This document shows positions 36,068-54,844 of a stretch of 64,000 bases of DNA, in pieces. How positions within the stretch are numbered: the first letter of the stretch is position 1; every line of letters begins with the position of its first letter. Both the position numbers and the translations under genes were made by a program. The notes under the pieces are model-generated. The model was not told the origin of the DNA and searched no databases. It worked only from the letters and a program-made list of their open reading frames with translations. The stretch comes from a virus: positions 1 to 64,000 of IMG/VR virus record IMGVR_UViG_3300002026_000069; one strand, given 5' to 3'.

Positions 36068-37681
36068 ATGATTCCAGTAAATCACATCGACTTATTTGTT
36101 CAGCCTGTAAAAGTAGATGTTGAGAAGGTCGCGGAGGTTAAGCTCAGCGATAACATTAATAATTGGGAAACTGAGTTAATCGAACACATAAACAGTGATC
36201 TTCCATATCTAGCTAAGATCCCGTATGAGATCCAGATTAAGCAGAAGGATAAAGAACTAGGCTATGCTCTAGGTTCTATTGTTCTAAAAATCGAAGGTAT
36301 TCAAGCTGCCATTCCGATCATTATTAAGAAGAGAAAACTTCAAGCTCTTGATGTTCTCATGGAAGGCGAAGAGAACGCCACTCCCTTAACTGAAGACACT
36401 CTTATGTCTTTAGTTCAAAAGAAGCAATCACTTGGCAAGTTAACAGATACGAAGAACACTGGACTTGTTGATAGAGTTACAGCCGGTGCTTCAGATGAAT
36501 CTGGACATATGCCACCGAATTATGGCAAGTATACATTTGCTTCGGTAAATAACGCGGATCCTAAAGCCATTAAGGAATATGAGGATCTTCTTAAAGAAGC
36601 TGCCTTCATAGCTGGATTCAAGGCTAAGAATCTTAATGGTCCACAATTATCTTTTAAGCCAAGATTAGTTACAAAAACTGGTGGAATTAAGAAGGTAGCT
36701 GGTCACATCATTAAAGAACCCAAGTCCATTCTAAGCTTATTAGAAAAGACAGGCTCTGCTCTCGTTGTTGATAAGAATAACGAACTCCATAAGGGTTTAT
36801 TCATCGACAATGTAAGAACCCTTGATGGTGAGAAGGTCGCTCAGAAACTCTTCATTACCGATAAGGCTTATGCCTATCAGGAGAAGATCGCTGGACGCGC
36901 TGGATCATTTAAGGTTAGCGGCGAAACGGATTACTCAATTAACGATGAAGTTGTGTTCGTTATTAACGGTGTAGCTACTGAGCCTGTTAAAATAGCAATG
37001 AAAGCTAATGGCGAGAAGCTCGCTTGTGTTAATCATTTTGGTCGTAGATTTAATGCTTATCTAACGAATGTTGATAGCATTGTAAAGACTGCTTCAGGAT
37101 ACTTAATCCCGAAGAAAGCCGCCATTATCAAGCTTGGCAAGCGTATCGTTGCAAGAACTTCTGATGAGGCAATTCTCAAGACTGCTCAAGCTAAGCTTGG
37201 AAATAAGACCTATATCACTTGCGCTCCTGAATCCTATTCATTCAGCAACGAGAAGGTTGGAACATTCAATAATCTTCCTCATCTGAGAATGATGACTCTG
37301 ATGAATGGATTCTATGAGAATGGCGTTGAACTATTAGAACAAGCTGAAAAGACCGGATCAGCGGTTATTTCAGCAATAGATATGGGTGTAGAGAAGAAGG
37401 CTTACAAAGTTCCTAAAGTCCTTTCTATTACCGATTCAGTGAAGCTCGCGGCCAATCTCGCTGATCCTGATTCAGTAGATGCAGTGCTATCACTAGGATT
37501 TATTAACGAAGATAACGTTGCTGATTTCGTAGAGATGGTTCCTCAGTTTGAGGAAGTTGTTAACCATCTTGCTAAGATCCTTATCTCTGTAAGACTTGGC
37601 ATGGCAGGCGATCAAAATGTTATTAAGCATGCCATGAAGTACCTTCAGAGAGTTATCGACAATCTAAAGGCATTAAGATGA
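36068..37681 (+). CDS. K-x-A-rich putative inner-head or core protein
   Basis: About 10 K-x-A motifs; TTGATA-16-TAATAT promoter at 36019-36046. Confidence 0.5.
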   Translation: MIPVNHIDLFVQPVKVDVEKVAEVKLSDNINNWETELIEHINSDLPYLAKIPYEIQIKQKDKELGYALGSIVLKIEGIQAAIPIIIKKRKLQALDVLMEGEENATPLTEDTLMSLVQKKQSLGKLTDTKNTGLVDRVTAGASDESGHMPPNYGKYTFASVNNADPKAIKEYEDLLKEAAFIAGFKAKNLNGPQLSFKPRLVTKTGGIKKVAGHIIKEPKSILSLLEKTGSALVVDKNNELHKGLFIDNVRTLDGEKVAQKLFITDKAYAYQEKIAGRAGSFKVSGETDYSINDEVVFVINGVATEPVKIAMKANGEKLACVNHFGRRFNAYLTNVDSIVKTASGYLIPKKAAIIKLGKRIVARTSDEAILKTAQAKLGNKTYITCAPESYSFSNEKVGTFNNLPHLRMMTLMNGFYENGVELLEQAEKTGSAVISAIDMGVEKKAYKVPKVLSITDSVKLAANLADPDSVDAVLSLGFINEDNVADFVEMVPQFEEVVNHLAKILISVRLGMAGDQNVIKHAMKYLQRVIDNLKALR

Positions 37682-38622
37682 GAAGATCTGAACAGATTCT
37701 TAACACCATAGATGAATTAAGTGCAGCAACAAGAAAAGGCGAATTAAGACGCCTACTAGCTCACGTTGGCGTGGGCGGCGTTGGCGGTGGCTATGTAGGC
37801 CATAAAGTCGATCTTACTGAAAATAATCCTGACTTAAAATTAAGTAAGGGTCAGAGAAAGCTTCAATCCATACTTAAGGGTGCAATAGGTGGCGGAACGC
37901 TTGGAGTTGCAACTGGAGCATTGCACGCTGCTCATTTTAGTGATTCTCAAAATAAAGTAAAAAATAAGTTATTTGGTGAGTTTCATAAAGCTCGCAACGC
38001 AGAAGAAGCCACTGAATGGGCTGAAAGAGAAAAGAGGCGTGCGGATAGAGCAAGGGAATGGGCTGAGAGAGATAGAAAAAGTCAGCAAGAATACGAAGAG
38101 GCTAAAAAGAAATACGACGACACTTTTGATTCTTTCAGAAAAAAGTATAGTGGATCTGGATCTGGATCTGGACAACAAAGACGTAGCTACGAAGACTTCG
38201 CTGGATCAGCTAGATCATCTTATAGATCTAGACAGAAATCCATTCCAGATATCTTTAAGGAAAGAACTGGAGGCGAGATAAAAACTAAGGCTGATCTCAA
38301 GGCTTGGTATAGAAGGAAAGCTAAAGAGCATCATCCAGATAGACATATGCAGGCTCCTGAATTAGTTCGTAAAGAACACGAAGCTAAGTTCAAGGCTGCT
38401 GAAACGCTCCATTCAGAACTTCAAAAGCATCCAGACTTTGATAAGTTTGCCGCTTTGAAGTTAGCTGTTTTAAAAGTTGAAGGCTTATACGCTGATCCTG
38501 AATACCAAAAGGTTCAGAGAAAGTATAATGATGGTAATTTAGAAGATAAGTTCCAATATCACGCCTATAAGCGTGCATTAGATAGAGCTACCTATAATTA
38601 CCATGCTAAAACACACCACTAA
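37678..38622 (+). CDS. J-domain (DnaJ-like) protein with N-terminal glycine-zipper hairpin
   Basis: LKAWYRRKAKEHHPDR...KFK; GxxxG helices; coiled coil. Confidence 0.75.
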   Translation: MRRSEQILNTIDELSAATRKGELRRLLAHVGVGGVGGGYVGHKVDLTENNPDLKLSKGQRKLQSILKGAIGGGTLGVATGALHAAHFSDSQNKVKNKLFGEFHKARNAEEATEWAEREKRRADRAREWAERDRKSQQEYEEAKKKYDDTFDSFRKKYSGSGSGSGQQRRSYEDFAGSARSSYRSRQKSIPDIFKERTGGEIKTKADLKAWYRRKAKEHHPDRHMQAPELVRKEHEAKFKAAETLHSELQKHPDFDKFAALKLAVLKVEGLYADPEYQKVQRKYNDGNLEDKFQYHAYKRALDRATYNYHAKTHH

Positions 38623-38737
38623 GCTTGCGGCTATTAAAGCTGCCATTAAGAAGTATAAACTCACCGCTTTACCTACCTATGGTGGAACAAATCTATCTAT
38701 GGTTAAGAGCGACTTACCAAGGAATGCATATCCATGA
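38603..38737 (+). CDS. 44-aa basic peptide (not in ORF track)
   Basis: MLKHTTKLAAIKAAIKK...; fills the gap, ATGA-coupled to next gene. Confidence 0.5.
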   Translation: MLKHTTKLAAIKAAIKKYKLTALPTYGGTNLSMVKSDLPRNAYP

Positions 38738-39042
38738 ATCTAGAACTTATTGAAGATGCAATTGAGAAGATTGCCGATGGTGCCGCTATGGCTAGGAAGG
38801 CTTTAGGATCGGCTAAATTAATTAAACCTGACACTCAACTCTCTAAGGGTCTTATTACACAAGGAGAGCATAGGAGTAAAATTAAAACTATGCTTTCATC
38901 TGCAAGACTACAGAGAGATAGTAAAGCTGGTAAATTAGCTCCTTTGGGTTCTGGTCATAAAGCGTACCCAGGTGTATATGAAGCTCCAATTAAATATGAA
39001 CACGATGTATCAAGACCTGGATTCTTAAAAGTAATTAAATGA
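38734..39042 (+). CDS. Leader-bearing basic protein
   Basis: MNLELIEDAIEKIA leader. Confidence 0.65.
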   Translation: MNLELIEDAIEKIADGAAMARKALGSAKLIKPDTQLSKGLITQGEHRSKIKTMLSSARLQRDSKAGKLAPLGSGHKAYPGVYEAPIKYEHDVSRPGFLKVIK

Positions 39043-40433
39043 AACCCATCCCAGGCTTCCCTGGCTATCACATCTCTGAGGATGGTAAAATTACCAATCC
39101 TAAAGGGAAGTTGTTAACCAGAAAGGATGCCTGGGAAGGTTATCCAAGAGCGCGTCTAAAGAACGAAGAAGGTAAGTTCGTTAATAGAAAGATTCATCGT
39201 CTTGTAGCCTTGGCACATCTTGGCGTTAACGACGGTGAGATTCGTCATAAAGATAACAACAGAGCTAATGTAGCCGTTCATAATCTTGAGTGGGGAGATA
39301 GATTCTCAAACGCTCAAGATAGATTAGCTCGCGGGTCATATCATCTAAAGACAAAGCTTGTGGGTGGGAAAAGCCTACTTGTCTTAGGTGACGATAAGTA
39401 CCTAGATCCTGAAGCTAAGAAAGTTTATAAGGTTACTGATCATCCTATTGGCGAAGAAGGTGTGATACCTGTAACATCATTAGAGAAGGTTGCATATTAT
39501 CGTAAATATGCTCTCATTGATTTAGATACAGGAAAAATTCAAAGTGGATTAAATACATATGTTAATTCTGAAGAGTTTAGAAAAAGGCATATAGAGAAGA
39601 AGGCTTTCCTACGTCGTTTTTTAAAACCAAATGTAGCTGAACATGCATTTGATGCCGTATCCAGCGTTCAACTGCCTGGAGGTATGATTGGCAATGCAGT
39701 GACATCTGCAAAGCATGCTTATCAAGGCATTAAACCACATTTAGGTGGACCTGAAACATTACTTACTAAGAAGAAGATACTTAAGCCATCACCTGTATTT
39801 AAGGGACTTAACATCCCGTCTGTTCAGCACGGAGTTTACACAAAGAGAGGACTAAAGGAAGTAACTGCTTCTAAGCTATATCCAGAAGCTCATGAGTTAC
39901 TATTTAATAGATTTACTCCTATAGAGCTATTAAAGGGTATTAAGAATAATCGTAAGTTTGACGGTAATTCCATTGATTATATTAAAGCCAACTTCCATCC
40001 AAGGAAGCTTGTAGATAAAGCTAACGCTGGTCATGAAGAGGCAAGAAAACTCGTAAAAGAGTTTGACTATGCAAGATCTGGCTTTGTTAAGAAAGCCGAA
40101 TGGACTTCCAAGAAGAACGCTGATAGTCACGCATTAAAGCATGCAGATGAAATGGGATTAACAAAAGAGCAATATATTGCTCTGGCTAAATCAGCATTGA
40201 ATGATAAGAAGTCTTTAATTAGCATTAGGGGTGATATACATAAGTCTCGTCATGGTAAGAATATTTTAGTTCATAAAGATGGAAAAGTAATTACTTATTA
40301 CTCAAAAGTGGCTTACATTCGTAAAATTAAGAAGGGACTAGAGAGAGGTATTGATAACTTCCAAGATTGGGGTTATCATCAGGATGTCATTCAAACACAT
40401 CAAGATATCAAAGAGAAGCGAAAGAAGAAATAG
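39039..40433 (+). CDS. NUMOD4-HNH endonuclease fused to further modules
   Basis: KPIPGFPGY.IS..G; HRLVA; HKDNNRAN...NLEW; later modules bounded by EKVA, EKKA, KKA, KVA. Confidence 0.75.
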   Translation: MKPIPGFPGYHISEDGKITNPKGKLLTRKDAWEGYPRARLKNEEGKFVNRKIHRLVALAHLGVNDGEIRHKDNNRANVAVHNLEWGDRFSNAQDRLARGSYHLKTKLVGGKSLLVLGDDKYLDPEAKKVYKVTDHPIGEEGVIPVTSLEKVAYYRKYALIDLDTGKIQSGLNTYVNSEEFRKRHIEKKAFLRRFLKPNVAEHAFDAVSSVQLPGGMIGNAVTSAKHAYQGIKPHLGGPETLLTKKKILKPSPVFKGLNIPSVQHGVYTKRGLKEVTASKLYPEAHELLFNRFTPIELLKGIKNNRKFDGNSIDYIKANFHPRKLVDKANAGHEEARKLVKEFDYARSGFVKKAEWTSKKNADSHALKHADEMGLTKEQYIALAKSALNDKKSLISIRGDIHKSRHGKNILVHKDGKVITYYSKVAYIRKIKKGLERGIDNFQDWGYHQDVIQTHQDIKEKRKKK

Positions 40434-40469
40434 ATTTACTTCGCTTGTCTAACATCTACTATATAGTAG

Positions 40470-41306
40470 ATGCTCCCCTATGACCGACTACTGCGTGGGC
40501 TTTTCGTAGTCCACAACAGACGGTTCGACCTCATCTCAAAACAGATGAGATCGTTTGGGATTGCTCTGGCTGAAGATGTTCTGGAAAGTTACTACCACCA
40601 AGAGTTTATAACACTCCTGGCTGATGAGGACCAGATTTTTTTCAGCGGATCTGAGTTTCATTCGGTTCATCCGAATGTCCTAAAGAAGATCGTGGTTCAG
40701 TTAGACATCGGGGCATACTTCAGCCCCCGTTGGGATATATCTCGCTTTGAGAATATCTATCGTAATAGATTATTACAAAGACATATCGAAGCTTCGTTCA
40801 TAGGTAAGTTAAACTCTGAGACAATCTCACAAGATATCTTAGATACATATCAGATCGAAGTTCCCATTCCTCTGATAGCAGAGTATAGAAGACTCTTCAT
40901 CGATCTAAGCTGTGTAAAGAACCAGGACGACTGGTTTTTTTACATGAGAACTCTTCCAAGAGATGAACAACTATTCCGTAATGCTGTAATTACACAGCCT
41001 TCGGAATATGTCCGTTGGAAGCTAGGATGCAAGGTTTACATTGATCCTCTTGAAGCAACCAGACAAATCGCAACTGATATGTTCTGGAAGTACAAAGAGA
41101 GTCTTACGGATCAGACCATGCAAGGGCTTGAAACCACTCGGCGTGTGGCTGAGTTGGCGTTTAAGGCTATTGATCGCGTCCATAAGATTGATAAAGACAA
41201 GAAGCCTCTTAATAAGGCCAAGAACTTCAACCAGTTACTTCTCTCCTTTGGTGGGGCAGATGAGACTACGGTTGACGATCTACGCATTCCTACTAATAAT
41301 GGGTAA
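40470..41306 (+). CDS. Hypothetical helical protein upstream of terminase (small-subunit candidate)
   Basis: Position only; TTTACT-16-TACTAT leaderless promoter. Confidence 0.45.
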   Translation: MLPYDRLLRGLFVVHNRRFDLISKQMRSFGIALAEDVLESYYHQEFITLLADEDQIFFSGSEFHSVHPNVLKKIVVQLDIGAYFSPRWDISRFENIYRNRLLQRHIEASFIGKLNSETISQDILDTYQIEVPIPLIAEYRRLFIDLSCVKNQDDWFFYMRTLPRDEQLFRNAVITQPSEYVRWKLGCKVYIDPLEATRQIATDMFWKYKESLTDQTMQGLETTRRVAELAFKAIDRVHKIDKDKKPLNKAKNFNQLLLSFGGADETTVDDLRIPTNNG

Positions 41307-41318
41307 CAGGAACCAATC

Positions 41319-41786
41319 ATGTCATTAGAACTTATTGAGCAAGCAATCGAAAAAGTAGCATTCTTACCCGCTGGGTCAGGTGCGGTACTCAAGGGAGCCT
41401 TCTCAAAGGGTTCTACCTGGAAGGGCATCGGAACTAGAGCCGCAATCGGCGCTGGTGTCGGAGGCGTAGGAAACGTACTTCTTGGCGATAAAGATCAATC
41501 AGTCATGGAACGCGCTACAAAGGGCGCTGTTGGTGGTGGATTGGTTGGTGGACTCTATGGAGCGGGTCGTGCTGCTCATGGAGCCATTAGGGGTGATGCC
41601 GTAGGTAAGGTTCGTAGTGCAGTGAGACAAAATAGATTCGTGAATAATGATCAAATTCACGGAACTATGGGAAATAGAAACGCCGATCAATTAGCTAGAT
41701 ATCAATCTGACTTAAAGGCTCATAAAGCTACGATTAGAGCCAAGATGAATCCAAGTGCAACTCCAGCACCAGCCGCCGCTCCTTAA
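41319..41786 (+). CDS. Leader-bearing glycine-zipper protein
   Basis: MSLELIEQAIEKVA leader; GAGVGG...GAVGGGLVGG. Confidence 0.65.
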   Translation: MSLELIEQAIEKVAFLPAGSGAVLKGAFSKGSTWKGIGTRAAIGAGVGGVGNVLLGDKDQSVMERATKGAVGGGLVGGLYGAGRAAHGAIRGDAVGKVRSAVRQNRFVNNDQIHGTMGNRNADQLARYQSDLKAHKATIRAKMNPSATPAPAAAP

Positions 41787-41901
41787 GATAAAGCATGCTA
41801 TCGCTAAGATAGCTGCTTTTAAGCTTAAAGCACCGGAAAAGAAACCGGAACAGACTCCAACACCTGTTCCGGCTATTGCTCCAACGAATGTCCCACCTTG
41901 A
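41755..41901 (+). CDS. Possible 48-aa peptide (not in ORF track)
   Basis: GTG start; ...IKHAIAKIAAFKLKAPEKKP...; resembles the IEDAIEKIA leader. Confidence 0.35.
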   Translation: MQLQHQPPLLKIKHAIAKIAAFKLKAPEKKPEQTPTPVPAIAPTNVPP

Positions 41902-41931
41902 ATGGTGGGATTTTTCGTTTAGTATGTATTC

Positions 41932-43467
41932 GTGAAGCCATCTACCCTTGCTCAAAAGATGTTGTCCCTTAAGGGTGGACCTTTAGACCTGAGAGGCAGA
42001 CCATATCTCAAAGATGTATATGATTCAGATGCACAGAGAGTTCTCTTAAAGTTTGGCCGTCAGTCTGAAAAGTCTACTACTTTAAGTGCTAAAATAACAT
42101 TAAATACAGCGTGCATCCCATACTTTAATACGCTGTTCGTTTCGCCTTCAGCTTCTCAGACGAAAGACTTTAGTAATGATCGTCTAAATCAGTTCATGAA
42201 GAATAGTGATTATATTGTAGATAATCTATTCGACCAAACATGTACTGATAGAGTAGATCAAAAGTCTCTTTTAAATGGTTCGAATGTATATCTGAGATAT
42301 GCATTCCATAACGCTGACAGAACCCGTGGTATATCTGCTGATCAGGTAGTTCTTGATGAGCTTCAAGATATTCGAACTGATAATATTTCGGTTATTGAAG
42401 AATCTGCGTCTCACTCTGAGAGAGGTTTAAAGGGTCATCCATATAAGTCTTTCATCTTCGCAGGCACTCCTAAGACTACGAATAACTCAATGGAGTTCTT
42501 TTGGCGTAGATCCTCAATGCGTGAGTGGGGTATTAAATGCGAAGGTTGCGGACATTGGGCATTAGAACTCTCTACAAAGAACATTGGTAAAGAGTATCTT
42601 ATATGCGAGAAATGCGGACATAGACTATATCCTCAAACTGGACGCTGGATTATCACGAATCCAGGTGCAGCTATTGAAGGATATCATATTTGTCAGTTAG
42701 CCGTTCCTTGGCTTGATTGGCAAAAAGACATTCTATTCAAATTAAATACCTATCCTCAGAATCGTTTCTATAACGAGGTTCTCGGGCTATCATACGATAG
42801 CGGTTCTAAGCCGTTAACCATGGCTCAACTTCGTCAATGCTGTAATCCTGATCGTAAGGATTGGTGGAAGCATGATGAAGGATATATACCAAGACCTTTG
42901 TTTGCTGGGATAGATTGGGCTTTAACAGCAGAGAAGTCCTTTACTATCCTAACCATAGGCGCTTGGCTTCCATTCCCTGAGAAGTTTGTTATTCTCTATC
43001 AGAAGAAGTATGAGGCTAATCTAGACCTACTCCAGCAAATTGAAGATATTAAGCTCGTTTGCGACCAATACGGCGTAGATCTTATTGGAGCGGATTGGGG
43101 TGCTGGTGTTCATAGTAACTTAAAGCTTATTGAACACTTCGGTTCCGATAGGGTTGCTCAGTATTATAACTCTGGATCTCAGAAGAACCGCATTCAGTGG
43201 AATGATAAGCGTCAGATGTTTACGATTAGCAGAACAACGGTAATGACAGATTTGTTTAACTATATACAAAAGTCTCGTATTGAATGGCCAGCATATGAAG
43301 TCTGTCAGGGATTCCTAACTGACTTCCTGAATGAAGATATCGAATACAATAAAGATGGTGTATTGTATTACGATCACAATCCAGATAGTCCTGATGATGC
43401 TATTCACTCGACTATGTATTGTATGTTAGCTGGAGAACTATTCTATACGAATAGGGGTAATAGCTAA
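41932..43467 (+). CDS. terL: Terminase large subunit
   Basis: Walker A GRQSEKST, Walker B VVLDE, coupling motif GTPK, CxxC..CxxC, nuclease GIDW and PDDAIH; TTGAAT-16-TAGTAT leaderless promoter. Confidence 0.92.
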   Translation: MKPSTLAQKMLSLKGGPLDLRGRPYLKDVYDSDAQRVLLKFGRQSEKSTTLSAKITLNTACIPYFNTLFVSPSASQTKDFSNDRLNQFMKNSDYIVDNLFDQTCTDRVDQKSLLNGSNVYLRYAFHNADRTRGISADQVVLDELQDIRTDNISVIEESASHSERGLKGHPYKSFIFAGTPKTTNNSMEFFWRRSSMREWGIKCEGCGHWALELSTKNIGKEYLICEKCGHRLYPQTGRWIITNPGAAIEGYHICQLAVPWLDWQKDILFKLNTYPQNRFYNEVLGLSYDSGSKPLTMAQLRQCCNPDRKDWWKHDEGYIPRPLFAGIDWALTAEKSFTILTIGAWLPFPEKFVILYQKKYEANLDLLQQIEDIKLVCDQYGVDLIGADWGAGVHSNLKLIEHFGSDRVAQYYNSGSQKNRIQWNDKRQMFTISRTTVMTDLFNYIQKSRIEWPAYEVCQGFLTDFLNEDIEYNKDGVLYYDHNPDSPDDAIHSTMYCMLAGELFYTNRGNS

Positions 43468-43491
43468 AGAAAGGCGCTCATGCGCCATGGT

Positions 43492-43716
43492 TCAATCAAC
43501 CATTCCTTCATTGGACTGAAGGAATTCAATCTCAGCCTGAGATACCTCGACATGTTGATTGTCGATCATCTCTTCAGAGATACTAGGATCTCCTTCTTCC
43601 TGCTTCTTGAGCATATCAAGCAACTTCTTCGATTCCATCACATAGGCATTCCACTTTGGTGTGGTTGCATCTGTGAGATCAACCCCGATGATATCGGGGC
43701 ATTGGATTTCAGACAT
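43492..43716 (-). CDS. Small acidic protein
   Basis: Class E promoter and SD at 43724-43745. Confidence 0.7.
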   Translation of the reverse strand: MSEIQCPDIIGVDLTDATTPKWNAYVMESKKLLDMLKKQEEGDPSISEEMIDNQHVEVSQAEIEFLQSNEGMVD

Positions 43717-44075: not shown

Positions 44076-44094
44076 ATGGATGTTATACCTAAAA

Positions 44095-46190: not shown

Positions 46191-46340
46191 GCTGATATCC
46201 TCCTTCAAGGACGAGAACCCATGATCTTCTGGATCACTTTCTCTAAATATATTATACCATTTGGAGGGTCCTTTTTCCCTTAAAGTGTCCCTGTGCAGGG
46301 ACATATTGATTTTAGGCTTCTTATCTATACTATGTTTCAT

Positions 46341-47165
46341 ATGTTCGATAGCGACTCTTGCAGGACTTGGGCTAAGGAAGCGTCTGATGCTTATCTAGCT
46401 GATAGCACCCCTCTAGGGGACACTATCGCTGGAATAGCTAAAAAGAACTCCTTAAACCCCAATCAGATACAAAGAGTCGTGGAATTGACTAATTCCATCA
46501 CTCATGCTAGACTATTCCAGAAGGAAAAGGATAAGACCTTTACCTTCCCACTGGCTAAATTAGACGATATTCTAGCTAAAACTAAGGAAACTACCGTGAA
46601 AGTAGCTGAAGCATACGTTTCAATGCCCGATATTCAACGTCCAGTGGAATCCACTAAGATAGCTGAGTTATTTGATAGCCCTGAAGTCTTGGATATTAAT
46701 AAGATAGCCACTCTAAAGAAGGCTCAAATCTACATTGAGAAGATGGAAAAGGCTGCTGAATGCCTAAATGACGCTCTAATTCTAGCCGATCTTAATGCCG
46801 TCCAGTATCTCAAGGATGCCAAAACGGTCATTAAACAGATGCTTTTAGACTCATATCATATGGAAGACCTCTTTGCGGCTATGATTGGGGCTATGCCAGA
46901 TAAGAAAATGGAGCTTTTAAGCTTATTTAGCTCTATCTGCAAGGAGCTTTCAGAAGAAGGGGTTAAGATTGCTTCCCTTTCAGTAGATCCAAACTATATA
47001 TCTTCTCTATTAAAGACTCAGAATATCAGAGTTGTCAATGGTCAGCACCCTCTTTACATGAATGTAAAGGGATATTTCGACCAAGTTGATGAAGTTGCAG
47101 CCAAAAAGAATAGCATCGAATGGCTTGGAAGCAAGATCAACGAGCTAAAACATGCAATTAAATGA
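46341..47165 (+). CDS. K-x-A-rich head-associated protein (start moved to MFDSD)
   Basis: TTGATT-16-TACTAT promoter ends 7 nt before ATG; LNPNQIQRVVE..N motif; KVA, KIA x3. Confidence 0.6.
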   Translation: MFDSDSCRTWAKEASDAYLADSTPLGDTIAGIAKKNSLNPNQIQRVVELTNSITHARLFQKEKDKTFTFPLAKLDDILAKTKETTVKVAEAYVSMPDIQRPVESTKIAELFDSPEVLDINKIATLKKAQIYIEKMEKAAECLNDALILADLNAVQYLKDAKTVIKQMLLDSYHMEDLFAAMIGAMPDKKMELLSLFSSICKELSEEGVKIASLSVDPNYISSLLKTQNIRVVNGQHPLYMNVKGYFDQVDEVAAKKNSIEWLGSKINELKHAIK

Positions 47166-47457
47166 GCATTCTATTAACGGCATGCTGAAATTAGCAGGTA
47201 TATACTCCAGTGTTATGACTGGCGGATATAATCTAGCTAAGAAAGGGATTTCTTCTTTAAAGCCTTTAGTCTCCAAAGAAGTCTCTCCAGGTGTCAGACG
47301 CCTCTCATTAAAGAGAATGGCTATGACAGGAGCAGGTCTTTATGGTGCCAAGAAGCTAACAGATCAAGTCTTAGAAAATCAACGTAACCTTTCAAGAGAC
47401 TATATGGATGATATTCATCCGTATCGTCAATCAGACACACTAAGGATGGCAAGATGA
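47152..47457 (+). CDS. Small basic protein with KLA leader
   Basis: MQLNEHSINGMLKLA. Confidence 0.6.
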   Translation: MQLNEHSINGMLKLAGIYSSVMTGGYNLAKKGISSLKPLVSKEVSPGVRRLSLKRMAMTGAGLYGAKKLTDQVLENQRNLSRDYMDDIHPYRQSDTLRMAR

Positions 47458-48097
47458 ACACTCAATTATACAATGAGTTACTAGAAGCTAAGGCAAATGG
47501 TACTTTGGGTACTGTTCTCCTTGAGAAATTCGCCTCTCTAAACATTAAGTCTGAAGATGAAGTTCGGCATTTATTTGATTGCACGAATGAAAAGCTTGCA
47601 TGGAAGGGTGGTGGCGGTGGTCCAGCACCAACACCTAGTAAATCAACCACTTTAGGCAAGGTAATTCTAGGCTTATCATTAGCTGGAATTGCATCAGTTC
47701 CTATTGGAGCCATGATTTCTAAGGCAAACCAGAAGAAGTCCACATTTGATAAGATCAAAGCTTCTAATCCTGCATTAGCTCAGGATGCCAAGACTAAGGA
47801 TCATTACGACATGCTATGGCATGAGCTTCTAATCCTGCATTAGCTCAGGATGCCAAGACTAAGGATCATTACGACATGCTATGGCATGTTGCTCCTAATC
47901 TTGCTGGAAATCATGTTATTGCCGCTTCTGTTCTTGAACAGCTTAAGGCTTATGACATGATTGATCACCAGATGATCGCTAAGCTTGTTGAAGCCGATAA
48001 GAACATGGCAGAGAGCAAGTCGAAGAGCGGTATGATTCAGAATGCCAGTAACCTCTCAACAATCGGAAAGAACATTTCCGATATGGCGAACAAGTAA
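47454..48097 (+). CDS. Head-associated protein (192 aa after removing a 65-bp duplication)
   Basis: Duplication removal restores frame; EKFA, EKLA; hydrophobic helix. Confidence 0.7.
47759..47888 (+). repeat. Exact 65-bp tandem duplication, frameshifting
   Basis: AGCTTCTAATCC...GCTATGGCATG x2. Confidence 0.95.
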
Positions 48098-48640
48098 ATG
48101 GACGGCAAAAAGATTGTAGAGCAATATCTTAAGATTGCTCCATATCTTGGTGCTGCTGGAACCGGCGCTGCCATTGGTGGCGCTGTTTCCGATGATCGTA
48201 AGAAGGGCGCTATGAAAGGCGCTCTTATTGGACTTGGTTCGTTGGTTGGTGGAAGATTGGCTGCAAAAGGTGGATCTTCTATTGCTAATAGGTTCCTAGG
48301 TAAGGATAAATTGAAATTTGCAAACGAGTTCCGTGAACTAGAAAAGAAAATTGGAACGGATGCAGCTATTCATAAAGTAAATATAGACGCTTTAGTTGCA
48401 AACGGAAAAGTAGATGCTGCTAATACATACATATCTAAACTTCAAACTGAAGGTTTAGGCGCAGCATATGCATCTCTTGGCGAGAATCATAAATATATTC
48501 CAGAAATTCCAAAGGATATGTTTGCAAAGCTTCTTTCTAAAGAAAGCGGAATTATCGGTGGCGCAGCAACTATTGGTTCTTCTGCTGGTTTAGCTGGAAC
48601 CGCATACGCATTAAGAAATGGTAATAGTTCTAAAAAATAA
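48098..48640 (+). CDS. Glycine-zipper protein with KIA leader
   Basis: MDGKKIVEQYLKIA; three GxxxG helices. Confidence 0.65.
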   Translation: MDGKKIVEQYLKIAPYLGAAGTGAAIGGAVSDDRKKGAMKGALIGLGSLVGGRLAAKGGSSIANRFLGKDKLKFANEFRELEKKIGTDAAIHKVNIDALVANGKVDAANTYISKLQTEGLGAAYASLGENHKYIPEIPKDMFAKLLSKESGIIGGAATIGSSAGLAGTAYALRNGNSSKK

Positions 48641-48845
48641 GAACATCGTAGGTTACTACGATGGAATGATTCATGCGGACAATGAGCATGACATTCGCTT
48701 AATAAATACATGTCTTAATGTAAATCTTGACAAAGCAGACGAATATCATAAGCTAAAAGATAGATTACACGCCCCTTACTTCTGTAAGCGTGGAACAACT
48801 AACCAATCCTTTAGGATAAAGCAAAATGTCATTAAATCTCATTGA
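48618..48845 (+). CDS. Hypothetical protein
   Basis: 75-aa ORF overlapping both neighbours. Confidence 0.45.
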   Translation: MVIVLKNKNIVGYYDGMIHADNEHDIRLINTCLNVNLDKADEYHKLKDRLHAPYFCKRGTTNQSFRIKQNVIKSH

Positions 48846-49197
48846 AGATGCAATTGAGAAAATAGCTTTATTATCAGCCGCAAACACAGCAGCACGATTT
48901 GGATTAATCGGTGGCGCTGTTGGCGCTTTTAGAAAGAAAGATAAAGACGAGTCTCGTCTTCATTCCATTCTTAGAAGTGCTGGAACTGGCGCTGCCGTTG
49001 GAGCAGGCGGAAACATAGCTGCAAGAGGCTTAGCTAAGGCTGTTAAATTTAGCCCTGGCAAAGCTGAAGTAGCAAAGCTCGTTGGAGATAAGAAGACTTA
49101 TAACAAAGAAATGCTTAAAGCATTGGCTGTACTTGGTGGTGGAACCGCTGGTAGTATTGGTGCTTATCACCTTGCCAAGAGAAAAGAAAATAAGTAA
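48826..49197 (+). CDS. Leader-bearing glycine-zipper protein
   Basis: MSLNLIEDAIEKIA leader; three Gly/Ala helices. Confidence 0.65.
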   Translation: MSLNLIEDAIEKIALLSAANTAARFGLIGGAVGAFRKKDKDESRLHSILRSAGTGAAVGAGGNIAARGLAKAVKFSPGKAEVAKLVGDKKTYNKEMLKALAVLGGGTAGSIGAYHLAKRKENK

Positions 49198-51041
49198 TGT
49201 TTAAAGCCATCGACATCGGACCATTGCTGGATGACGGCGAATTAGCCGTTAAACTCATGCCCGTTGGCGATGAGGAAAAGACAGCTTCCGTACTTGGAAA
49301 GCATATTCCTGATGAGATCGCTCTCTTCGCTAAAGCGGCTAAGTCTTCTGAAGACTGTGTTTGGCTTCATGTTATCGCCATGACGGCTGGAGACTTTTAT
49401 GGTCCCAATCGTAATGGCGATTTCTTCTATGAAGCTGATCTTCTTGGAATGCAAGATCAAGAAGAAGCTAATAAGAATATTGGCGAATATACTGGAAAGC
49501 CACTTCAACGCTATAAGACATTCTTACAGGCTTCATTCTATCATCATCATAAGAATAAGCCAGATCTAGGGCATCCTCGCTTTGGTCGTGTTGTAGTTGT
49601 AGCTTACAACCACATCATGCATCGTGTTGAGCTTGTTCTACAAGTATTCAGAATTACTAAGAAGATTGGTGATATCACCTATCTTGGTGATCCTGATACT
49701 TGCGGAAAGGCTATGAGAGGCGAACAAATCGCTTTCTCCATGGGATGCAAGGTTCCTGGTGACTATTGCTCAATTACTGGTGTATGGAATAAGACGGTTG
49801 CTAACTATGGATTGCACTTAAAGACCATGATGGGTCGTATAATGCCTGATGGAAGGCGTGTATACGCAATTAATAGAAAACCAAGATTCTTCGATATCTC
49901 AAAGGTTCTTATTCCCGCAGACCCACTTGGGCTATCCATTACTAAAGTAGCTTCAGTAATCATTGGATCTGCTCAGAAAGCTCTGGATTACGGCATGGAA
50001 GATAACGAGAAGCTTTCAATCTTAAAGAAGTCTGAAATAAAGAAAATAATTCCAGATGGCAAACTGATTGGTGAATTAGCCGATCAGCATGAGATGCCTG
50101 GATTAGAATATACTGATGATGATCTTCCTAGTAATGTATTAGATAGTCTAGGCAACCTATCTTTAGGCAAGGCTCTTACTAACCTATTAGCTTCAGGCAT
50201 GCTTGCTTCACCAAGAGAAGTTGGCACTATCATTACTATTCGTATTCAACGTTCTCCTAACTGGATGAAAGAGACTCCTGATATTGATTGGAATGGTGGA
50301 GTGGATTCTGATGTTCAGAAAGAACTCGCTAAGCATGCTGCAAGTCGTTCTTTCTTTGGGCATCTTCCATTAAATAGAATGGAGAAGCTGGCTAATGTTG
50401 AAGAGAAGGCTGAAAAGTCTCTTCCAGATAAGATTTACGAGAAGTTTAACAAGCAACTTCCAGTTGGTGTGACGATGGGTGCATTGATTGCATCTATATA
50501 TACGTTGTATCGTGCCAACATTCGTAGCGGAACATTAGAAAGTTTCTTTAAACTAATCGATAAGAATCCATATATTCTTCCTGCTGTCATTGGTGGTGGA
50601 ACTTTGGCAAGTTCAACCATATCAGCAGCTATGGAGAAGAAAGCTGATATGCACAAGCATATCAATAAACTTCTTTTAGCTACTGCTATTCCATATGTTG
50701 GATCTGCCTATCTGACTCAAAGAGAGAAGGAAGGCAAGCAACTTGGTGCTGTCTCAAGATTCATTAAAGACAATCCAGGTGCTTTGGCTATCGGCAGCAA
50801 CATAGCTGCTTTTGGTGGAGCAAAAGCCCTAAAGGACAAACTGACTTCAAAAGTTGCTCACTTGAAAAAGTGCGCGGGCTTAGATAAGATGGATGTGATA
50901 GATAACTTTGTCGTGCAGCCAATGACATCACTTTCGGGAAGCATTCCGCATTCGATGGTTGGTGGTTCGATAGATAGTTATGTCCTAAACAAACTTCTCA
51001 ATCGTAAGAGAAAAACCCTTCCTTCCTCAACGGAGAAATAA
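49197..51041 (+). CDS. Prohead (capsid maturation) protease candidate with long C-terminal extension
   Basis: NRNGD.F, HH.NK, FSMG, FFDIS.V..PAD, comparable to HK97/assemblin-fold protease motifs; upstream of scaffold-like genes and capsid. Confidence 0.65.
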   Translation: MFKAIDIGPLLDDGELAVKLMPVGDEEKTASVLGKHIPDEIALFAKAAKSSEDCVWLHVIAMTAGDFYGPNRNGDFFYEADLLGMQDQEEANKNIGEYTGKPLQRYKTFLQASFYHHHKNKPDLGHPRFGRVVVVAYNHIMHRVELVLQVFRITKKIGDITYLGDPDTCGKAMRGEQIAFSMGCKVPGDYCSITGVWNKTVANYGLHLKTMMGRIMPDGRRVYAINRKPRFFDISKVLIPADPLGLSITKVASVIIGSAQKALDYGMEDNEKLSILKKSEIKKIIPDGKLIGELADQHEMPGLEYTDDDLPSNVLDSLGNLSLGKALTNLLASGMLASPREVGTIITIRIQRSPNWMKETPDIDWNGGVDSDVQKELAKHAASRSFFGHLPLNRMEKLANVEEKAEKSLPDKIYEKFNKQLPVGVTMGALIASIYTLYRANIRSGTLESFFKLIDKNPYILPAVIGGGTLASSTISAAMEKKADMHKHINKLLLATAIPYVGSAYLTQREKEGKQLGAVSRFIKDNPGALAIGSNIAAFGGAKALKDKLTSKVAHLKKCAGLDKMDVIDNFVVQPMTSLSGSIPHSMVGGSIDSYVLNKLLNRKRKTLPSSTEK

Positions 51042-51042
51042 A

Positions 51043-51606
51043 ATGCAGATCGAAGATTTACTCGCACAGCTTGCTGCTGGTAGCGAAAAAACTGGCACTG
51101 AGGCTGAAAAGACCGCTGCTGCCGCATCAACCACCCTTCCTGAAGGTATTTCTGCTGAAGTCTTAGCTATGGCTAAGGCTCTCTCAGAAGACAAGGAAGC
51201 TCTCGCTGCTCTTCAGAGCATGAGCGAGGACTCAGAGAAGACTGCTGAAGCTGAGAAGCTTGCAGAAGAGCTTGAGTTCCAAGGCCGTCTGTTTGCTCGC
51301 GGTTTAATCGCTGAGCAGACCAAGATTGCCTATCTTTCAGACCAGATCGACGAAGATGCCGTTATTAAGACTGCCGAAGCACTTCACATGACTCTCGATG
51401 AGATTATGGGCGAGAAGATCGCTGATGCTCATGAGCAGGCTTACACCGCTGCCCAGAATAATTCTGGCGCTGGTCATGTCGAAGTTGCTCAGAACGCTCA
51501 TGAGCGTCCTGTTGCAAAGGCAGAAGAACTCAAGGGCTTAGCCGCAGTTGCGAATGCTCTTAAGAAGGTCAAAGTCAACAAAACCGATCAGCCCGTTAAC
51601 GGCTAA
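51043..51606 (+). CDS. Acidic scaffold-like protein
   Basis: E/A-rich helical; EKTA, EKLA, KIA, KTA repeats; GRLFARG. Confidence 0.6.
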   Translation: MQIEDLLAQLAAGSEKTGTEAEKTAAAASTTLPEGISAEVLAMAKALSEDKEALAALQSMSEDSEKTAEAEKLAEELEFQGRLFARGLIAEQTKIAYLSDQIDEDAVIKTAEALHMTLDEIMGEKIADAHEQAYTAAQNNSGAGHVEVAQNAHERPVAKAEELKGLAAVANALKKVKVNKTDQPVNG

Positions 51607-51639
51607 TCATAAACAATCCATACCTACAAGGAAAATAAC

Positions 51640-52056
51640 ATGGATCTCGCAGAATACTACGAAGAAGTCACCAAGACCGCTGGCCTGAAAGAGGAAGCCG
51701 ACGTTAGCGAAGAGAAGGTAGCTGCCATCGTTGCAGTTTCCGAACAATTCGATATCGACGGAATCGCTTTCGAAAACGAAGACGAGAAGATTGCTGCCGC
51801 AGTCGCTATCGTTGAAGGATTCGAGTCAGTTGTTGAGGAATCAGAGAAGGACGCAGGCGTTGGCGAAATGTACAACAAGGTCAAGGGTCATCTCGCTGCT
51901 GGATATGCAAAGGTGAAGGAAAAGGCTGGAAAGGCTTACGCCGCCACCAAGGAACACCTAAAGACGCATAAGGGCAAGTATTACGCTGGCGCTGGCGGTG
52001 CTGCCGCTGGTGGAGTTGCTGGATACGTCGCTGGCCGCAGAAGCAAGAGCAAGTAA
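51640..52056 (+). CDS. Scaffold/internal protein: acidic N-half, basic Gly-rich C-half
   Basis: KTA, EKVA, EKIA; EKDA sits at the charge switch. Confidence 0.6.
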   Translation: MDLAEYYEEVTKTAGLKEEADVSEEKVAAIVAVSEQFDIDGIAFENEDEKIAAAVAIVEGFESVVEESEKDAGVGEMYNKVKGHLAAGYAKVKEKAGKAYAATKEHLKTHKGKYYAGAGGAAAGGVAGYVAGRRSKSK

Positions 52057-52075
52057 GCTTTTAAAAGCTTACTAT

Positions 52076-52111
52076 ACGAAAACCCCGCTCTTGTAGCGGG
52101 GTTTTTCGTTT
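52076..52111 (+). terminator. Intrinsic terminator
   Basis: AAAACCCCGCT/AGCGGGGTTTT. Confidence 0.8.
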
Positions 52112-52158
52112 CGCTTGTCATTTATAAGTAAAATCATACACTATCTACGGAGTAATAT

Positions 52159-52392
52159 ATGAACCTTTCAGTAGAAGATATTGTTAAAGAAGCCGTAGCT
52201 AAGGGAAAGAGCTTCGTTCCAGTTCCTAAGCATTCAGATGAATCTGAGCCTGCTAAGTTAGCTTCAGCCTTAGAAGCTCTTGCCGAAGATGCAGATGAAG
52301 AAGCTCAGGCTTATGCTAAGCATACAGAAGAAAAAAACGAAAAGTTAGCTTCAATTAAAGAATTCGTGGATACACTACACGAAGTTTTATGA
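52159..52392 (+). CDS. Small acidic head-associated protein
   Basis: KLAS x2; TTGTCA-16-TACACT promoter at 52115-52142. Confidence 0.6.
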   Translation: MNLSVEDIVKEAVAKGKSFVPVPKHSDESEPAKLASALEALAEDADEEAQAYAKHTEEKNEKLASIKEFVDTLHEVL

Positions 52393-53231
52393 TAGAGCAG
52401 AGGAATAAATTTAGAGAGGCTGAATTTGCCCGTCAAGGAAGCGGATCTCTAACAGTAGATGCCGCTAAGGGTCTTACTGGTTTAGCTGGTGGAGCCGTTG
52501 GTGCTGCGAGAGGTAAGGGATTTTCTGAATCAAGAAAGAAAACCTCTGAAGCAGTTGGAAAAGGTCTTTGGCATGGATTTGGAAAGCATGTAGATTATGC
52601 AGATAGATACTTAGGTGGAGCAGCTTCTAAGATTCCAATTCTTGGAAGAATGTTTAAATCAAAAGAGAGATTTGAACACGCTTTAACACCTGAAATTAAA
52701 GCTAAGTTAGGAAAAGAAGTCCTTAATCCAGCGGAACGTCATGCAGTTACCGCTGCAACAGAAGGTGTGAATGTTCGTAGACTTTCAACGCCAATTAAAG
52801 GTGTTGCTAAGGTTGCCGTTCCAATTGCCGCATCTATGTATATAGGTGATAAGATGATGAAATATAAAGAACGAAAAGCAGCAGAGCAACAACAAAAGAA
52901 CGCTGAATTAAGCGTTGTTGTTCAAAAATCAGTCCTCTTGAAAACAGCAGGGGTTCTCCGTAATCTAGATCAGGAGAAAAAAGCAGCCCTAGCTGAACTT
53001 GCAGAGACTACCAAACTCGCTACTGCTCAGAAGGCAGTTTTATCTTTAGTCAGAGAAGGTTTAATAGACCTTGATGACATAGACGAAAAGATAGCAGAGT
53101 TAGTTGAGCATCCAGATAGAGCAGAATCATTCTTCAATGTTCCAAAGACTTCAAACTTCGGAACTCTTTCGACTTCAACAACCTCTTCTTCGAATCCCCT
53201 AGAAGACTTCCTACTCAACGGAGAAAAATAA
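52389..53231 (+). CDS. Scaffold-like protein (basic N-part, acidic helical C-part)
   Basis: KTA, KLA, EKIA; C-terminal NPLEDFLL. Confidence 0.55.
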   Translation: MIEQRNKFREAEFARQGSGSLTVDAAKGLTGLAGGAVGAARGKGFSESRKKTSEAVGKGLWHGFGKHVDYADRYLGGAASKIPILGRMFKSKERFEHALTPEIKAKLGKEVLNPAERHAVTAATEGVNVRRLSTPIKGVAKVAVPIAASMYIGDKMMKYKERKAAEQQQKNAELSVVVQKSVLLKTAGVLRNLDQEKKAALAELAETTKLATAQKAVLSLVREGLIDLDDIDEKIAELVEHPDRAESFFNVPKTSNFGTLSTSTTSSSNPLEDFLLNGEK

Positions 53232-53232
53232 G

Positions 53233-53658
53233 ATGTCACTAGAAATGCTTACCCGCACAGAAGACATTCGCCGCAATGTCCTGAACAATAGCGGCAACGC
53301 TGTTGTTCGTTCAGGCTCATGGGTTGCCCGTGATGCCAATGGCAATGCCAAAACCCCTTCAGCAGGTGAAGTTTCCGCTGGCGTTGCTCAGCTTGTCATT
53401 CTCGGCAACGAGAATGCTCGTCCTGATAGCATCGGCAGCGAAACAGTCACCGTCCAGTATGGCCAGAATCGTTTCGCTGTAACAAGCGAAGGATTCGTTG
53501 ATACAAGCGTAGTAGTTGGTTGCGAGCTTCAGATCGTCAATACACCATCAGGTGTAGGTGAGATTGGTTACAAGCTCGGATTCAAGGCTGCTGGCGCGAC
53601 TGTTGCCATCTGCGAAGAGATCTCAGGCGGAAGACTCGTCTTCCGTACCCTCCGCTAA
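53233..53658 (+). CDS. Capsid decoration/cement-like protein
   Basis: 141-aa beta-rich ORF directly before capsid gene, similar GC-richer codon style. Confidence 0.55.
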   Translation: MSLEMLTRTEDIRRNVLNNSGNAVVRSGSWVARDANGNAKTPSAGEVSAGVAQLVILGNENARPDSIGSETVTVQYGQNRFAVTSEGFVDTSVVVGCELQIVNTPSGVGEIGYKLGFKAAGATVAICEEISGGRLVFRTLR

Positions 53659-53692
53659 ACTTATATACTAAAAATATAAAGGACAACATTCA

Positions 53693-54844
53693 ATGAGCGA
53701 CAATTCAGCAATCCTAAATGGCCTCTTCGTAGATGCCGTTTCAACATCAGACGGGCTTGAAAAGCTCGCTGAAGTCGGTGGAGCTTACATCCAGAAGATC
53801 CTGCGTGAGACTTCGTTCGCACGCCAGATTCTTCCTCCGGTCAATGTAACTCGTACCGATGTTACCCGTAGCGTTGATCACGATGGATTCGTCAAGATCA
53901 TCGACATTGAGCCTGATTCGAAGGCTATGGCGATGAACTTCCTTGGCGAGCCAGATGGCCGCTACATCACTGGCGCTCGTTACGCCGTTCCTTTCTTCCG
54001 CGTTGCTTCGGAAGACTTCAGCAAGGATGAAACCGAACTGATGGCCTATGACTACCCGATCACAAGAGTGATTGAGGAAAATAGCGTCAAGGATATTCAG
54101 GAGATCGAAGATAAGGTCTTCATGAAGTATGTTGACTCAGGCATTCGTTCGAATGCTATGTTCGTCAACTATGTCGGCACCAGCAAGAATCTCAGCAAGG
54201 CAGCCGTTAAGACTCTGATCAATCTGATCGAAGCCAAGCGTCTGAAGTGCGAAGTTCTTCTGATGGCAACGACCACCTGGAACGACGTTCTGGAGTTCGA
54301 CTACAGCGTTCTTGGCTCGGATCTGATCTCAAAGGTAACTGTTGAAGGATACACCTACAACACGTTCCTTGGCCGCAAGGTGATCACTTCGATCAAGGAA
54401 TCGATGTTCTTCAAGAACGCCAAGTTCCAGAATGCAGGAACCGTAACGGTAGTTGCTTCGACATCGGCTGTCGTAACAACCAATATCTTCAACGGAACCT
54501 TCGACACTGCCATCATCGGCATTGGCGACACCGTTGTAGTCTCGGGTGCTGGTGCCAACACTGGCAAGACCGGAACCGTGGTTTCAGTCTCAGCAACCCA
54601 GCTTGTTGTTACTGCCACGCTTGCCAACGAAGCTGCCGCTGAAACCCTGACCATCACGGCTAAGAGCCTGAAGACGATCTACGCCTTCACCGCCCCACGC
54701 TTCCTTGGTCACTTCTTCATCCTGAACCAGACGAAGTTCGTGATCAAGAAGGATATGAACATCATCACCTTCCGCGCTTGGGAAGATGTTGCTATCGGTA
54801 TCGGCAACCTGAATGCCGCCGCTGGCGTAACTCTCGACTCATAA
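53693..54844 (+). CDS. Major capsid protein with an ~85-aa inserted domain
   Basis: LRE.SFAR.ILPP, DIQEIED..F, FLGRKVI..IK, AWED...GIGN; high-expression codon bias; synteny; terminator after. Confidence 0.8.
   Translation: MSDNSAILNGLFVDAVSTSDGLEKLAEVGGAYIQKILRETSFARQILPPVNVTRTDVTRSVDHDGFVKIIDIEPDSKAMAMNFLGEPDGRYITGARYAVPFFRVASEDFSKDETELMAYDYPITRVIEENSVKDIQEIEDKVFMKYVDSGIRSNAMFVNYVGTSKNLSKAAVKTLINLIEAKRLKCEVLLMATTTWNDVLEFDYSVLGSDLISKVTVEGYTYNTFLGRKVITSIKESMFFKNAKFQNAGTVTVVASTSAVVTTNIFNGTFDTAIIGIGDTVVVSGAGANTGKTGTVVSVSATQLVVTATLANEAAAETLTITAKSLKTIYAFTAPRFLGHFFILNQTKFVIKKDMNIITFRAWEDVAIGIGNLNAAAGVTLDS

Follow-up and report, generated by a model that had tools for sequence, protein, structure and literature searches.

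A predicted alanine-specific K-x-A cleavage code of the prohead serine protease encoded on a viral contig related to Salmonella phage Arash

The first 64 kb of the 100,160-bp viral contig IMGVR_UViG_3300002026_000069, which is estimated to be ~55% complete, carry a head module whose gene identities were drawn from protein matches to Salmonella phage Arash (180.8 kb). Within this 64,000-nucleotide stretch (the window, in which open reading frames (ORFs) are named by their first position), the genes for the large terminase (41932), a predicted prohead protease (49197), a scaffold-like protein (51043) and the major capsid protein (53693) follow one another in an order that matches the head modules of Arash, Vibrio phage D181 and phage G. 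A megablast search with positions 49197-54844 against 50,697 phage records returned zero matches. A preliminary description of this DNA had noted that the tripeptide Lys-x-Ala (K-x-A) recurs densely in head proteins and had proposed that the product of ORF 49197 cuts after it, unlike the proteases of phages T4 and phiKZ. Our analysis supports this prediction through the fold of the protease, its own conserved sites, an imprint across its clade, leaders on candidate substrates and an alignment to a published cut in phage G. We estimate a probability of roughly 80% that K-x-A is the cut-after-Ala site of the prohead serine protease 49197, with leader-tagged substrates. The features of the protease and the capsid protein are as follows (aa, amino acids; pLDDT, predicted local distance difference test; PSSM, position-specific scoring matrix).

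49197..51041 (+): predicted prohead protease of 614 aa whose C-terminal region is long and helical; ortholog of Arash gp222 (34% identity)
49278..49286 (+): predicted N-terminal self-cut site K28-T-A30, followed by Ser; K-x-A in 38/41 family members; in the low-confidence segment aa 20-33
49287..49952 (+): protease core, aa 31-252; His118 and Ser181 (Ser-Met-Gly) invariant in a 41-sequence alignment
49944..49952 (+): predicted release site K250-V-A252 closing the core, with Ser as the next residue; K-x-A in 39/41
50637..50645 (+): conserved site K481-K-A483 in the helical C-terminal region; K-x-A in 36/41; in the low-pLDDT segment aa 466-487
50868..50876 (+): site K558-C-A560 near the C-terminus; K-x-A in 18/41; in the disordered tail aa 548-614
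53693..54844 (+): major capsid protein (phrog_2522; 34% identity to Arash gp226); a predicted cut after Ala26 would remove a 26-aa leader
53762..53770 (+): capsid site K24-L-A26 (GLEKLA); PSSM score 3.8

The AlphaFold 2 (AF2) model of the 49197 product comprises a core (aa 35-250) at pLDDT >90, two low-confidence segments that flank it (aa 20-33 and 254-301) and a helical C-terminal region beyond. An exhaustive structural comparison (VIA-align) with 48,161 chains placed two capsid-maturation proteases at the top, those of varicella-zoster virus (VZV; 1vzv, Z 9.5, root-mean-square deviation (rmsd) 3.3, 119 aligned residues) and phage T4 (gp21; 5jbl, Z 9.3, rmsd 2.9, 130 aligned residues), followed by the human cytomegalovirus (HCMV) protease (8j3s, Z 6.8), while the next, unrelated match scored Z 5.8. 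A Foldseek search with the full-length model retrieved the pseudorabies virus, VZV, Epstein-Barr virus and HCMV proteases and T4 gp21, all weakly (E 0.15 or worse), and the nearest Pfam-bearing clusters in a protein atlas were Peptidase_S77 and S80. On this model, the N-terminal domain has the fold of herpesvirus assemblin and T4 gp21. Since the curated sequence families (Pfam S77/S78/S80/S21) were unmatched, 49197 is placed among the clan SH proteases at the level of fold only. In an alignment of 41 homologs (28-85% identity), His118 and Ser181 are invariant (41/41) and stand 63 residues apart, within the spacing of about 55-70 residues expected of clan SH proteases, and Ser181 sits in the FSMG motif named in the preliminary description. 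Candidates for the third member of a Ser-His-His triad, as in herpesvirus assemblin, are His117 and His207 (each in 34/41), and Asp233 and Asp189 are also conserved.

The same alignment confirmed that K-x-A brackets the protease core, with the motif conserved in 38/41 members at aa 28 and in 39/41 at aa 250. Ser is the next residue in 21/41 members at aa 28 and in 25/41 at the release site (P1'), downstream of which the linker aa 254-301 is disordered. Across the family, these invariant K-x-A islands stand in otherwise variable linkers. Conserved sites flanking the core are what self-release would look like at the level of the motif, the cleavage itself being predicted, and by analogy K558-C-A560 is a candidate counterpart of the herpesvirus M-site.

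More than 1150 homologs of ORF 49197 were found, many of them on contigs of 140-217 kb, and none of the 120 homologs listed carries a protease Pfam domain. Some family members have intein-type domains (PF14528, PF05203) and some longer forms carry PF18823, which suggests that the family underwent intein invasion and domain fusions. Just past the catalytic Ser, 34/41 members feature a Cys-x2-Cys...Cys-x-His arrangement (aa 191-207) that resembles a metal-binding knuckle. This putative knuckle appears to have been lost in the sub-clade of the window, because Thr194 and Gly205 replace two of the four ligands.

The candidate substrates are listed below with the analysis that identified each; all leaders and pieces are predicted.

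1268..2194 (+): 308-aa protein with 13 K-x-A, mostly 20-35 aa apart, two genes upstream of the portal gene; K-[TIVLK]-A 10 against 1.6 expected
36068..37681 (+): 537-aa protein with 14 K-x-A motifs; K-[TIVLK]-A 11 against 2.2 expected
38734..39042 (+): small basic protein with the same 14-aa leader as 48826 (leader analysis)
41319..41786 (+): Gly-rich basic protein with the same leader as 48826, ending E-K-V-A (PSSM, leader analysis)
46341..47165 (+; GTG start at 46293): head protein, ortholog of Arash gp220 (protein match)
47152..47457 (+): small basic protein, 15-aa leader ending K-L-A (leader analysis)
47454..47843 (+): small protein in which sites at aa 25-27 and 47-49 precede a basic part of 80 aa (PSSM, segment map)
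48098..48640 (+): Gly/Ala-rich protein, 14-aa leader ending K-I-A (leader analysis)
48826..49197 (+): basic (+13) Gly/Ala-rich protein with the shared 14-aa acidic leader ending E-K-I-A (leader analysis)
51043..51606 (+): Ala/Glu-rich scaffold-like protein with 7 K-x-A sites; K-[TIVLK]-A 6 against 1.0 expected
51640..52056 (+): four acidic pieces, each with K-x-A at its end, before a C-terminal piece of 66 aa that is basic and Gly-rich (segment map)
52159..52392 (+): small acidic protein; three K-x-A sites, of which aa 10-12 is the first (site list, PSSM)
52389..53231 (+): basic site-free N-terminal 143 aa and a C-terminal region with 8 K-x-A (segment map)

To assess the motif in single proteins, counts were compared with 2000 shuffles of the residues within each protein. 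Our recount of K-[TIVLK]-A, the form in which the preliminary description had reported the motif, matched its dense counts: 10 in 1268, 11 in 36068, five each in 46293/46341, 49197 and 52389, six in 51043, three each in 51640 and 28948, two in 52159 and four in 39039. The excess was significant in six of these named carriers, namely 1268 and 36068 (expectations as listed), 51043 (p 0.0005), 46293 (1.1 expected), 52389 (1.3 expected, p 0.0085) and 49197 (1.7 expected), and marginal in 51640 and 52159, whereas 28948 (p 0.27) and 39039 (p 0.09) did not differ significantly from their shuffles. ORF 39039 was rejected as a substrate, because an HNH homing endonuclease forms its N-terminal part and the flanking consensus does not accompany its motifs.

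An unbiased scan of all 400 gapped residue pairs of the form X-x-Y, in which the motif was not preselected, ranked K-x-A first in the block 46293-53693 and first in the block 36068-39039. In ORF 1268 it was second, after a pair with a single count, and in the remainder of the record it was not among the leading pairs. Neither L-x-E nor I-x-E was among the top pairs of the head blocks. As a control, the identical scan of T4 gp67, gp68, gp21 and gp22 recovered the experimentally established I/L-x-E code, which ranked 1 and 3 with an effect of similar size. Pooled over 15 candidate substrates, a set partly picked by motif count, K-x-A occurred 82 times against 41 expected (z 7.4), while the portal, terminase, RNA polymerase and tail-size proteins together gave 33 against 35 and the early genes 27 against 31. 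The portal protein has three K-x-A in its 625 aa and the terminase zero, and the RNA polymerase 22019 carries five against 4.8 expected.

The twofold excess was unchanged when residues were shuffled only within 12-residue blocks, which keeps local composition, and in the shuffle controls the mirror motif A-x-K and the near misses R-x-A, K-x-G and K-x-S showed no excess, with K-x-L and E-x-A at expectation. An artefact of composition or helical sequence was rejected on these grounds. Lys and Ala codon usage at the sites equals the overall usage of the same proteins, so K-x-A is not a DNA-level motif. Flanking positions were informative only in the head set, with Glu at P4 (4.4-fold), an acidic residue at P6 and Ile, Val, Leu or Thr at P2. 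The middle residues T/I/V/L of the preliminary description stand as a local habit and not as a rule of the family, whose other members also use E, Q, S and A, and Lys, which it had included, is not favoured at this position even in the window (0.7x).

To investigate whether the motif accompanies the protease in homologous phages, viral contigs were scanned with the protease family alignment, which gave 513 confirmed loci, of which 80 were kept and 75 were analysable. The proteases of these loci are 24-43% identical, and genes on the strand of the protease, from -4 to +5 kb around it, were taken as neighbours. K-x-A occurred 2354 times in the neighbours against 1222 expected (z 36.8) and ranked first of the 400 pairs, followed by L-x-K and M-x-K, while all other genes of the 75 loci were at chance level (ratio 1.04). 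The logo of the relatives reads acidic at P7/P6, Leu/Met/Ile at P5, Glu at P4, Lys at P3, a variable P2 that is mostly aliphatic, Thr or Glu, and Ala at P1, then Ser/Glu/Ala, and this flanking logo is specific to the protease-neighbouring genes. K-x-A falls within the first 35 aa of 62% of these neighbour proteins, against 25% in shuffles.

A log-odds PSSM built from the relatives only was then applied to the record of the window, where it re-identified 1268, 36068, 41319, 46293, 47454, 49197, 51043, 51640, 52159, 52389 and the capsid protein, and found single or double sites in 28948 and 30023. Past the end of the window, the other 36 kb of the record gave only two hits. Among cultured relatives, K-x-A is enriched in Arash gp220 (10 against 2.9 expected), gp222, gp223 and gp225, in several Vibrio D181 head proteins and in gp19, gp7 and gp21 of phage G. 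The Arash proteins gp220, gp222 and gp226 and the neighbours gp221 and gp223-225 were all detected in virion preparations (PMC10585845, Table 2).

The capsid protein links the motif to a measured N-terminus. Its single motif near the N-terminus was found at aa 24-26, as the preliminary description had reported. N-terminal sequencing of the phage G capsid protein showed that 255 of its 282 aa remain and that its mass falls from 31.2 to 28.2 kDa (Hua et al., PMC5646251, Table 1), and only a cut after Ala27 reproduces both the lengths and the masses. In an alignment of four capsid proteins, Ala27 of phage G, Ala26 of the window and the alanine of K-E-A in Arash and Vibrio D181 occupy one invariant column, and an invariant Gly (Gly21 in the window capsid) stands five residues before it. 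By this alignment of the alanines, the cut measured in phage G fits the cut predicted here. In Arash, 86.64% of the 307 aa of the capsid protein were covered in virion proteomics (PMC10585845, Table 2), which leaves ~41 aa unseen, and a cut after Ala29 would delete or shorten three N-terminal tryptic peptides with a total of 38 aa. Judged from this percentage alone, the gap is consistent with, but not diagnostic of, a cut after Ala29. The window capsid also contains an insertion of ~75 aa (at ~aa 255-330), which the capsids of Arash, Vibrio D181 and phage G lack and which may be an extra surface domain.

The evidence shown here consists of the protease fold with its invariant His and Ser, the motif statistics, the conservation of the sites and the alignment with a published cut; from it we infer the cutting itself, its exact bond and the fate and role of its products. 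In the mechanism that we propose, 49197 would act as a capsid-maturation serine protease of the assemblin/gp21 fold inside the assembled prohead, and would cut after the P1 Ala of an extended motif in which P7/P6 are acidic, P5 is Leu/Met/Ile, P4 is Glu, P3 is Lys and P2 is aliphatic or Thr, with Ser/Glu/Ala following the cut. It would free its own 222-aa core by cuts at aa 30/31 and 252/253, remove the 26-aa leader of the capsid protein, break up the Ala/Glu-rich scaffold-like 51043 together with the acidic halves of the proteins encoded next to it, and remove leaders of 12-15 aa, mostly acidic, from small basic Gly/Ala-rich proteins. The trimmed basic proteins would stay in the head as internal, possibly ejected, proteins.

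The arrangement of sites in the candidate substrates agrees with these roles. Cut at every site, 51043 would fall into seven acidic fragments of 6-28 aa and a C-terminal one of 60 aa. The segments of 51640 have charges of -3, -3, -6 and -5, followed by +11 after EKDA, which upholds the division into an acidic and a basic Gly-rich half made in the preliminary description, and three of its sites score at least 2 on the PSSM. Within the first 35 aa, 10/14 proteins of the block 46293-53693 carry K-x-A, against 4.9 expected. One 14-aa acidic leader ending in E-K-(I/V)-A is common to three unrelated proteins (38734, 41319 and 48826), and leaders of 12-15 aa are also present on 47152, 48098, 51640 and 52159. 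ORF 46293 has nine K-x-A when read from its GTG start, and with the ATG at 46341 it joins these proteins, K-E-A then ending a 14-aa leader. Altogether, the sequences support 13-17 candidate substrates, and the figure of about 20 head proteins in the preliminary description was too high.

Small, strongly basic Gly/Ala-rich proteins with glycine-zipper-like stretches stand behind the leaders of 38734, 41319, 47152, 48098 and 48826 and form the C-terminal half of 51640. They may be internal head proteins that associate with DNA or act on membranes.

ORF 1268, for which no relative was detected among cultured phages, was compared with 46293 as a possible paralog and proved unrelated. If it were cut at every K-x-A, only peptides of ~5-37 aa would be left, as from a second sacrificial core protein.

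Several observations weigh against the proposed code. Neither Pfam (E up to 0.01) nor PHROGs offered a family that matched ORF 49197, and most proteins of the head block were likewise unmatched. The profile of the 49197 family gave only chance helical matches among all PDB sequences, with no sequence similarity to solved proteases detected. The hhalign comparison of the family with T4 gp21 was insignificant (E 0.18), yet paired Ser181 with T4 Ser140. The only experimentally known cut in the protease clade, that of the phage G capsid, is A-L-A followed by Gln, with Ala and not Lys at P3. In 36068, 6/14 K-x-A (aa 256-350) lie within a confident beta domain (pLDDT 81-90), so not every K-x-A can be an accessible cut site, and the earlier claim that the motif falls at domain boundaries holds for the protease and 51640 but not for these six motifs. 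Arash gp220, gp221, gp223 and gp224 reached 96-100% proteomic coverage (PMC10585845), which at face value means that uncut tryptic peptides, and hence some uncut molecules, were present; the preparation was not one of pure virions, since it contained many non-virion enzymes, ribonucleotide reductase and helicases among them. Finally, the choice of the 15 pooled substrates was guided in part by motif count, while the positional sets (the 400-pair scans of the window and of the relatives) were free of this bias.

The conserved sites of 36068 are at aa 20, 273, 459 and 520, of which aa 20, 459 and 520 are in low-confidence regions, and aa 273 is the only one of the six beta-domain motifs that is conserved in distant homologs. 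A fold search with 36068 matched only its C-terminal helical hairpin, to generic helices, and found no match for the beta domain.

Some of these observations would also fit a motif that serves as a docking or capsid-targeting signal, binding the protease, the scaffold or the shell and so bringing proteins into the prohead without being the scissile site, so that any cutting would take place at other positions or be absent. Its concentration in the N-terminal leaders of unrelated proteins is typical of targeting sequences, and both the motifs inside the folded domain of 36068 and the near-complete coverage of the orthologous head proteins in Arash (PMC10585845) are compatible with binding. We nevertheless consider pure docking improbable: the two best-conserved sites bracket the protease core exactly and lie in disordered linkers, the small P1 residue and the P1' bias to Ser/Ala are typical of a scissile bond, and the measured N-terminus of the phage G capsid immediately follows the aligned alanine (PMC5646251). 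Targeting and cutting are in any case not exclusive, because in T4 one and the same element serves as targeting leader and as cut site.

Still less probable is that the sites are cut by a host protease, or at another bond such as that after Lys, and not by 49197 after Ala. The phage G site without Lys at P3 speaks for such a view. Against a host enzyme, the motif travels with the phage protease gene across Salmonella, Vibrio and Bacillus-group hosts, 49197 itself carries it at its own domain borders, and the tagged proteins have no signal peptides. Bacterial signal peptidase, moreover, prefers small residues at -3, not Lys. The use of another bond is opposed by the published mass and length of the phage G capsid protein, which fit only the cut after Ala27. 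Least of all can we credit that the excess is a by-product, without specific function, of Lys/Ala/Glu-rich helical or low-complexity sequence: several tagged proteins are indeed rich in these residues, a risk against which the preliminary description had cautioned, but the excess outlasts local shuffling with A-x-K, K-x-L and E-x-A at expectation, flank information is confined to head-module proteins, and invariant K-x-A islands persist in otherwise variable linkers.

A prohead protease acting on propeptides is a known kind of system, in which an Ala-specific K-x-A code would be a new form. T4 gp21 (MEROPS S77; 5jbl) shares its fold with 49197, its gene adjoins scaffold-like and capsid genes as in the window, and many T4 head proteins (gp22, gp67, gp68 and internal proteins) have short leaders that end in the cut motif. 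The action of gp21 yields acidic core peptides and basic internal proteins (reviewed in PMC9026906), and a similar reduction of the scaffold to small acidic peptides, with basic internal proteins left, is predicted from the genes of the window. In contrast to T4, where the cut follows Glu, the predicted cut follows Ala with Lys at P3, sequence similarity is undetectable, the protease is fused to a helical region of ~360 aa and most members of its family carry the Cys-x2-Cys...Cys-x-His cluster after the catalytic Ser. Herpesvirus assemblin (MEROPS S21; 1vzv), the best fold match, has in common with the window P1 Ala, a frequent P1' Ser and a layout of N-terminal protease, release site, linker, scaffold-like region and a further site near the C-terminus, but the window differs in its P3 Lys and its many separate leader-bearing substrates, leaders being absent in herpesviruses. 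Herpesvirus cut sites have an aliphatic residue at P3 or P4, and the R and M sites are cut at Ala-Ser.

The S80 proteases phiKZ gp175 and SPN3US gp245 (MEROPS) belong to large phages with a virion-packaged RNA polymerase, a likely trait of the window as well, in which one protease cleaves many head and ejection proteins, mostly by removal of N-terminal propeptides (PMC10052503, PMC5694885), and the processing of a dozen or more head proteins by one protease is likewise predicted for the window. These enzymes cut after Glu in (S/A/G)-x-E, whereas 49197 has no Pfam S80 match, and the RNA polymerase of the window shows no motif excess. A further comparison is with phage G, whose gp19 has been published as a head maturation protease (PMC12484599). 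It is a distant homolog of 49197 (27% identity over the core), is encoded between the portal and capsid genes, and the capsid protein gp27 loses its leader after the aligned Ala (PMC5646251). Phage G differs in that gp19 has 300 aa and no long helical tail, in its A-L-A capsid site and in a ~5-fold larger genome. The searched literature contained no description of a K-x-A capsid-protease code in phages, and its papers on prohead-protease specificity concerned only Glu-specific systems, the cut-after-Glu rules of T4 and of the phiKZ/SPN3US group being the phage cleavage codes documented there.

Prohead proteases decide the contents of the mature virus head, and the code is conserved across >500 viral contigs, with Salmonella phage Arash, Vibrio phages D181, D148 and D69 and Bacillus phage G as cultured carriers in which it can be tested directly. 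If it is true, the mature capsid, the scaffold and the internal or ejected proteins could be predicted from metagenomic sequence, and a short tag for loading foreign proteins into these capsids would be at hand. It would also be a data point on how specificity evolves in a protease fold common to tailed phages and herpesviruses, the assemblin of which also cuts Ala-Ser. We give even odds to the broader proposal that a very large, mostly uncultured clade of 100-500-kb phages has a gp21/assemblin-fold protease that cuts after Ala at (L/M)-E-K-x-A, with short, portable, motif-terminated leaders as combined address and release tags by which basic, glycine-zipper-like and enzymatic proteins, in varying sets, are brought into the capsid. 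On this proposal, sequence alone would suffice to read the full packaged and processed proteome of such phages, and the Ala/Ser specificity in common with assemblin would either go back to an ancestor or have arisen by convergence inside a single protease fold.

The other genes of the window that served as context are the following.

3631..5508 (+): portal protein, 27% identity over 574 aa to Arash gp204; without K-x-A excess
22019-27598 (+): RNA polymerase-like protein of 1859 aa, 32% identity over ~1500 aa to Arash gp206
41932..43467 (+): large terminase (phrog_675, E 7e-73); without K-x-A

Arash gp206 ('RNAP beta') was the most abundant protein in the Arash virion proteomics (PMC10585845), and because this counterpart tops the list, the product of 22019-27598 is likely a virion-packaged RNA polymerase. 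Homing endonucleases are inserted among the structural genes, of the GIY-YIG type at 2885-3634 and 35419-36030 and of the HNH/NUMOD4 type at 39039-40433, the last 330 aa of which have no assigned function. Directly upstream of the capsid gene, 53233-53658 (+) encodes a 141-aa, Lys-poor (2.1%) protein, at the place where phage G has its decoration gene gp26. Having no leader motif, it would fit addition to the outside of the capsid after maturation.

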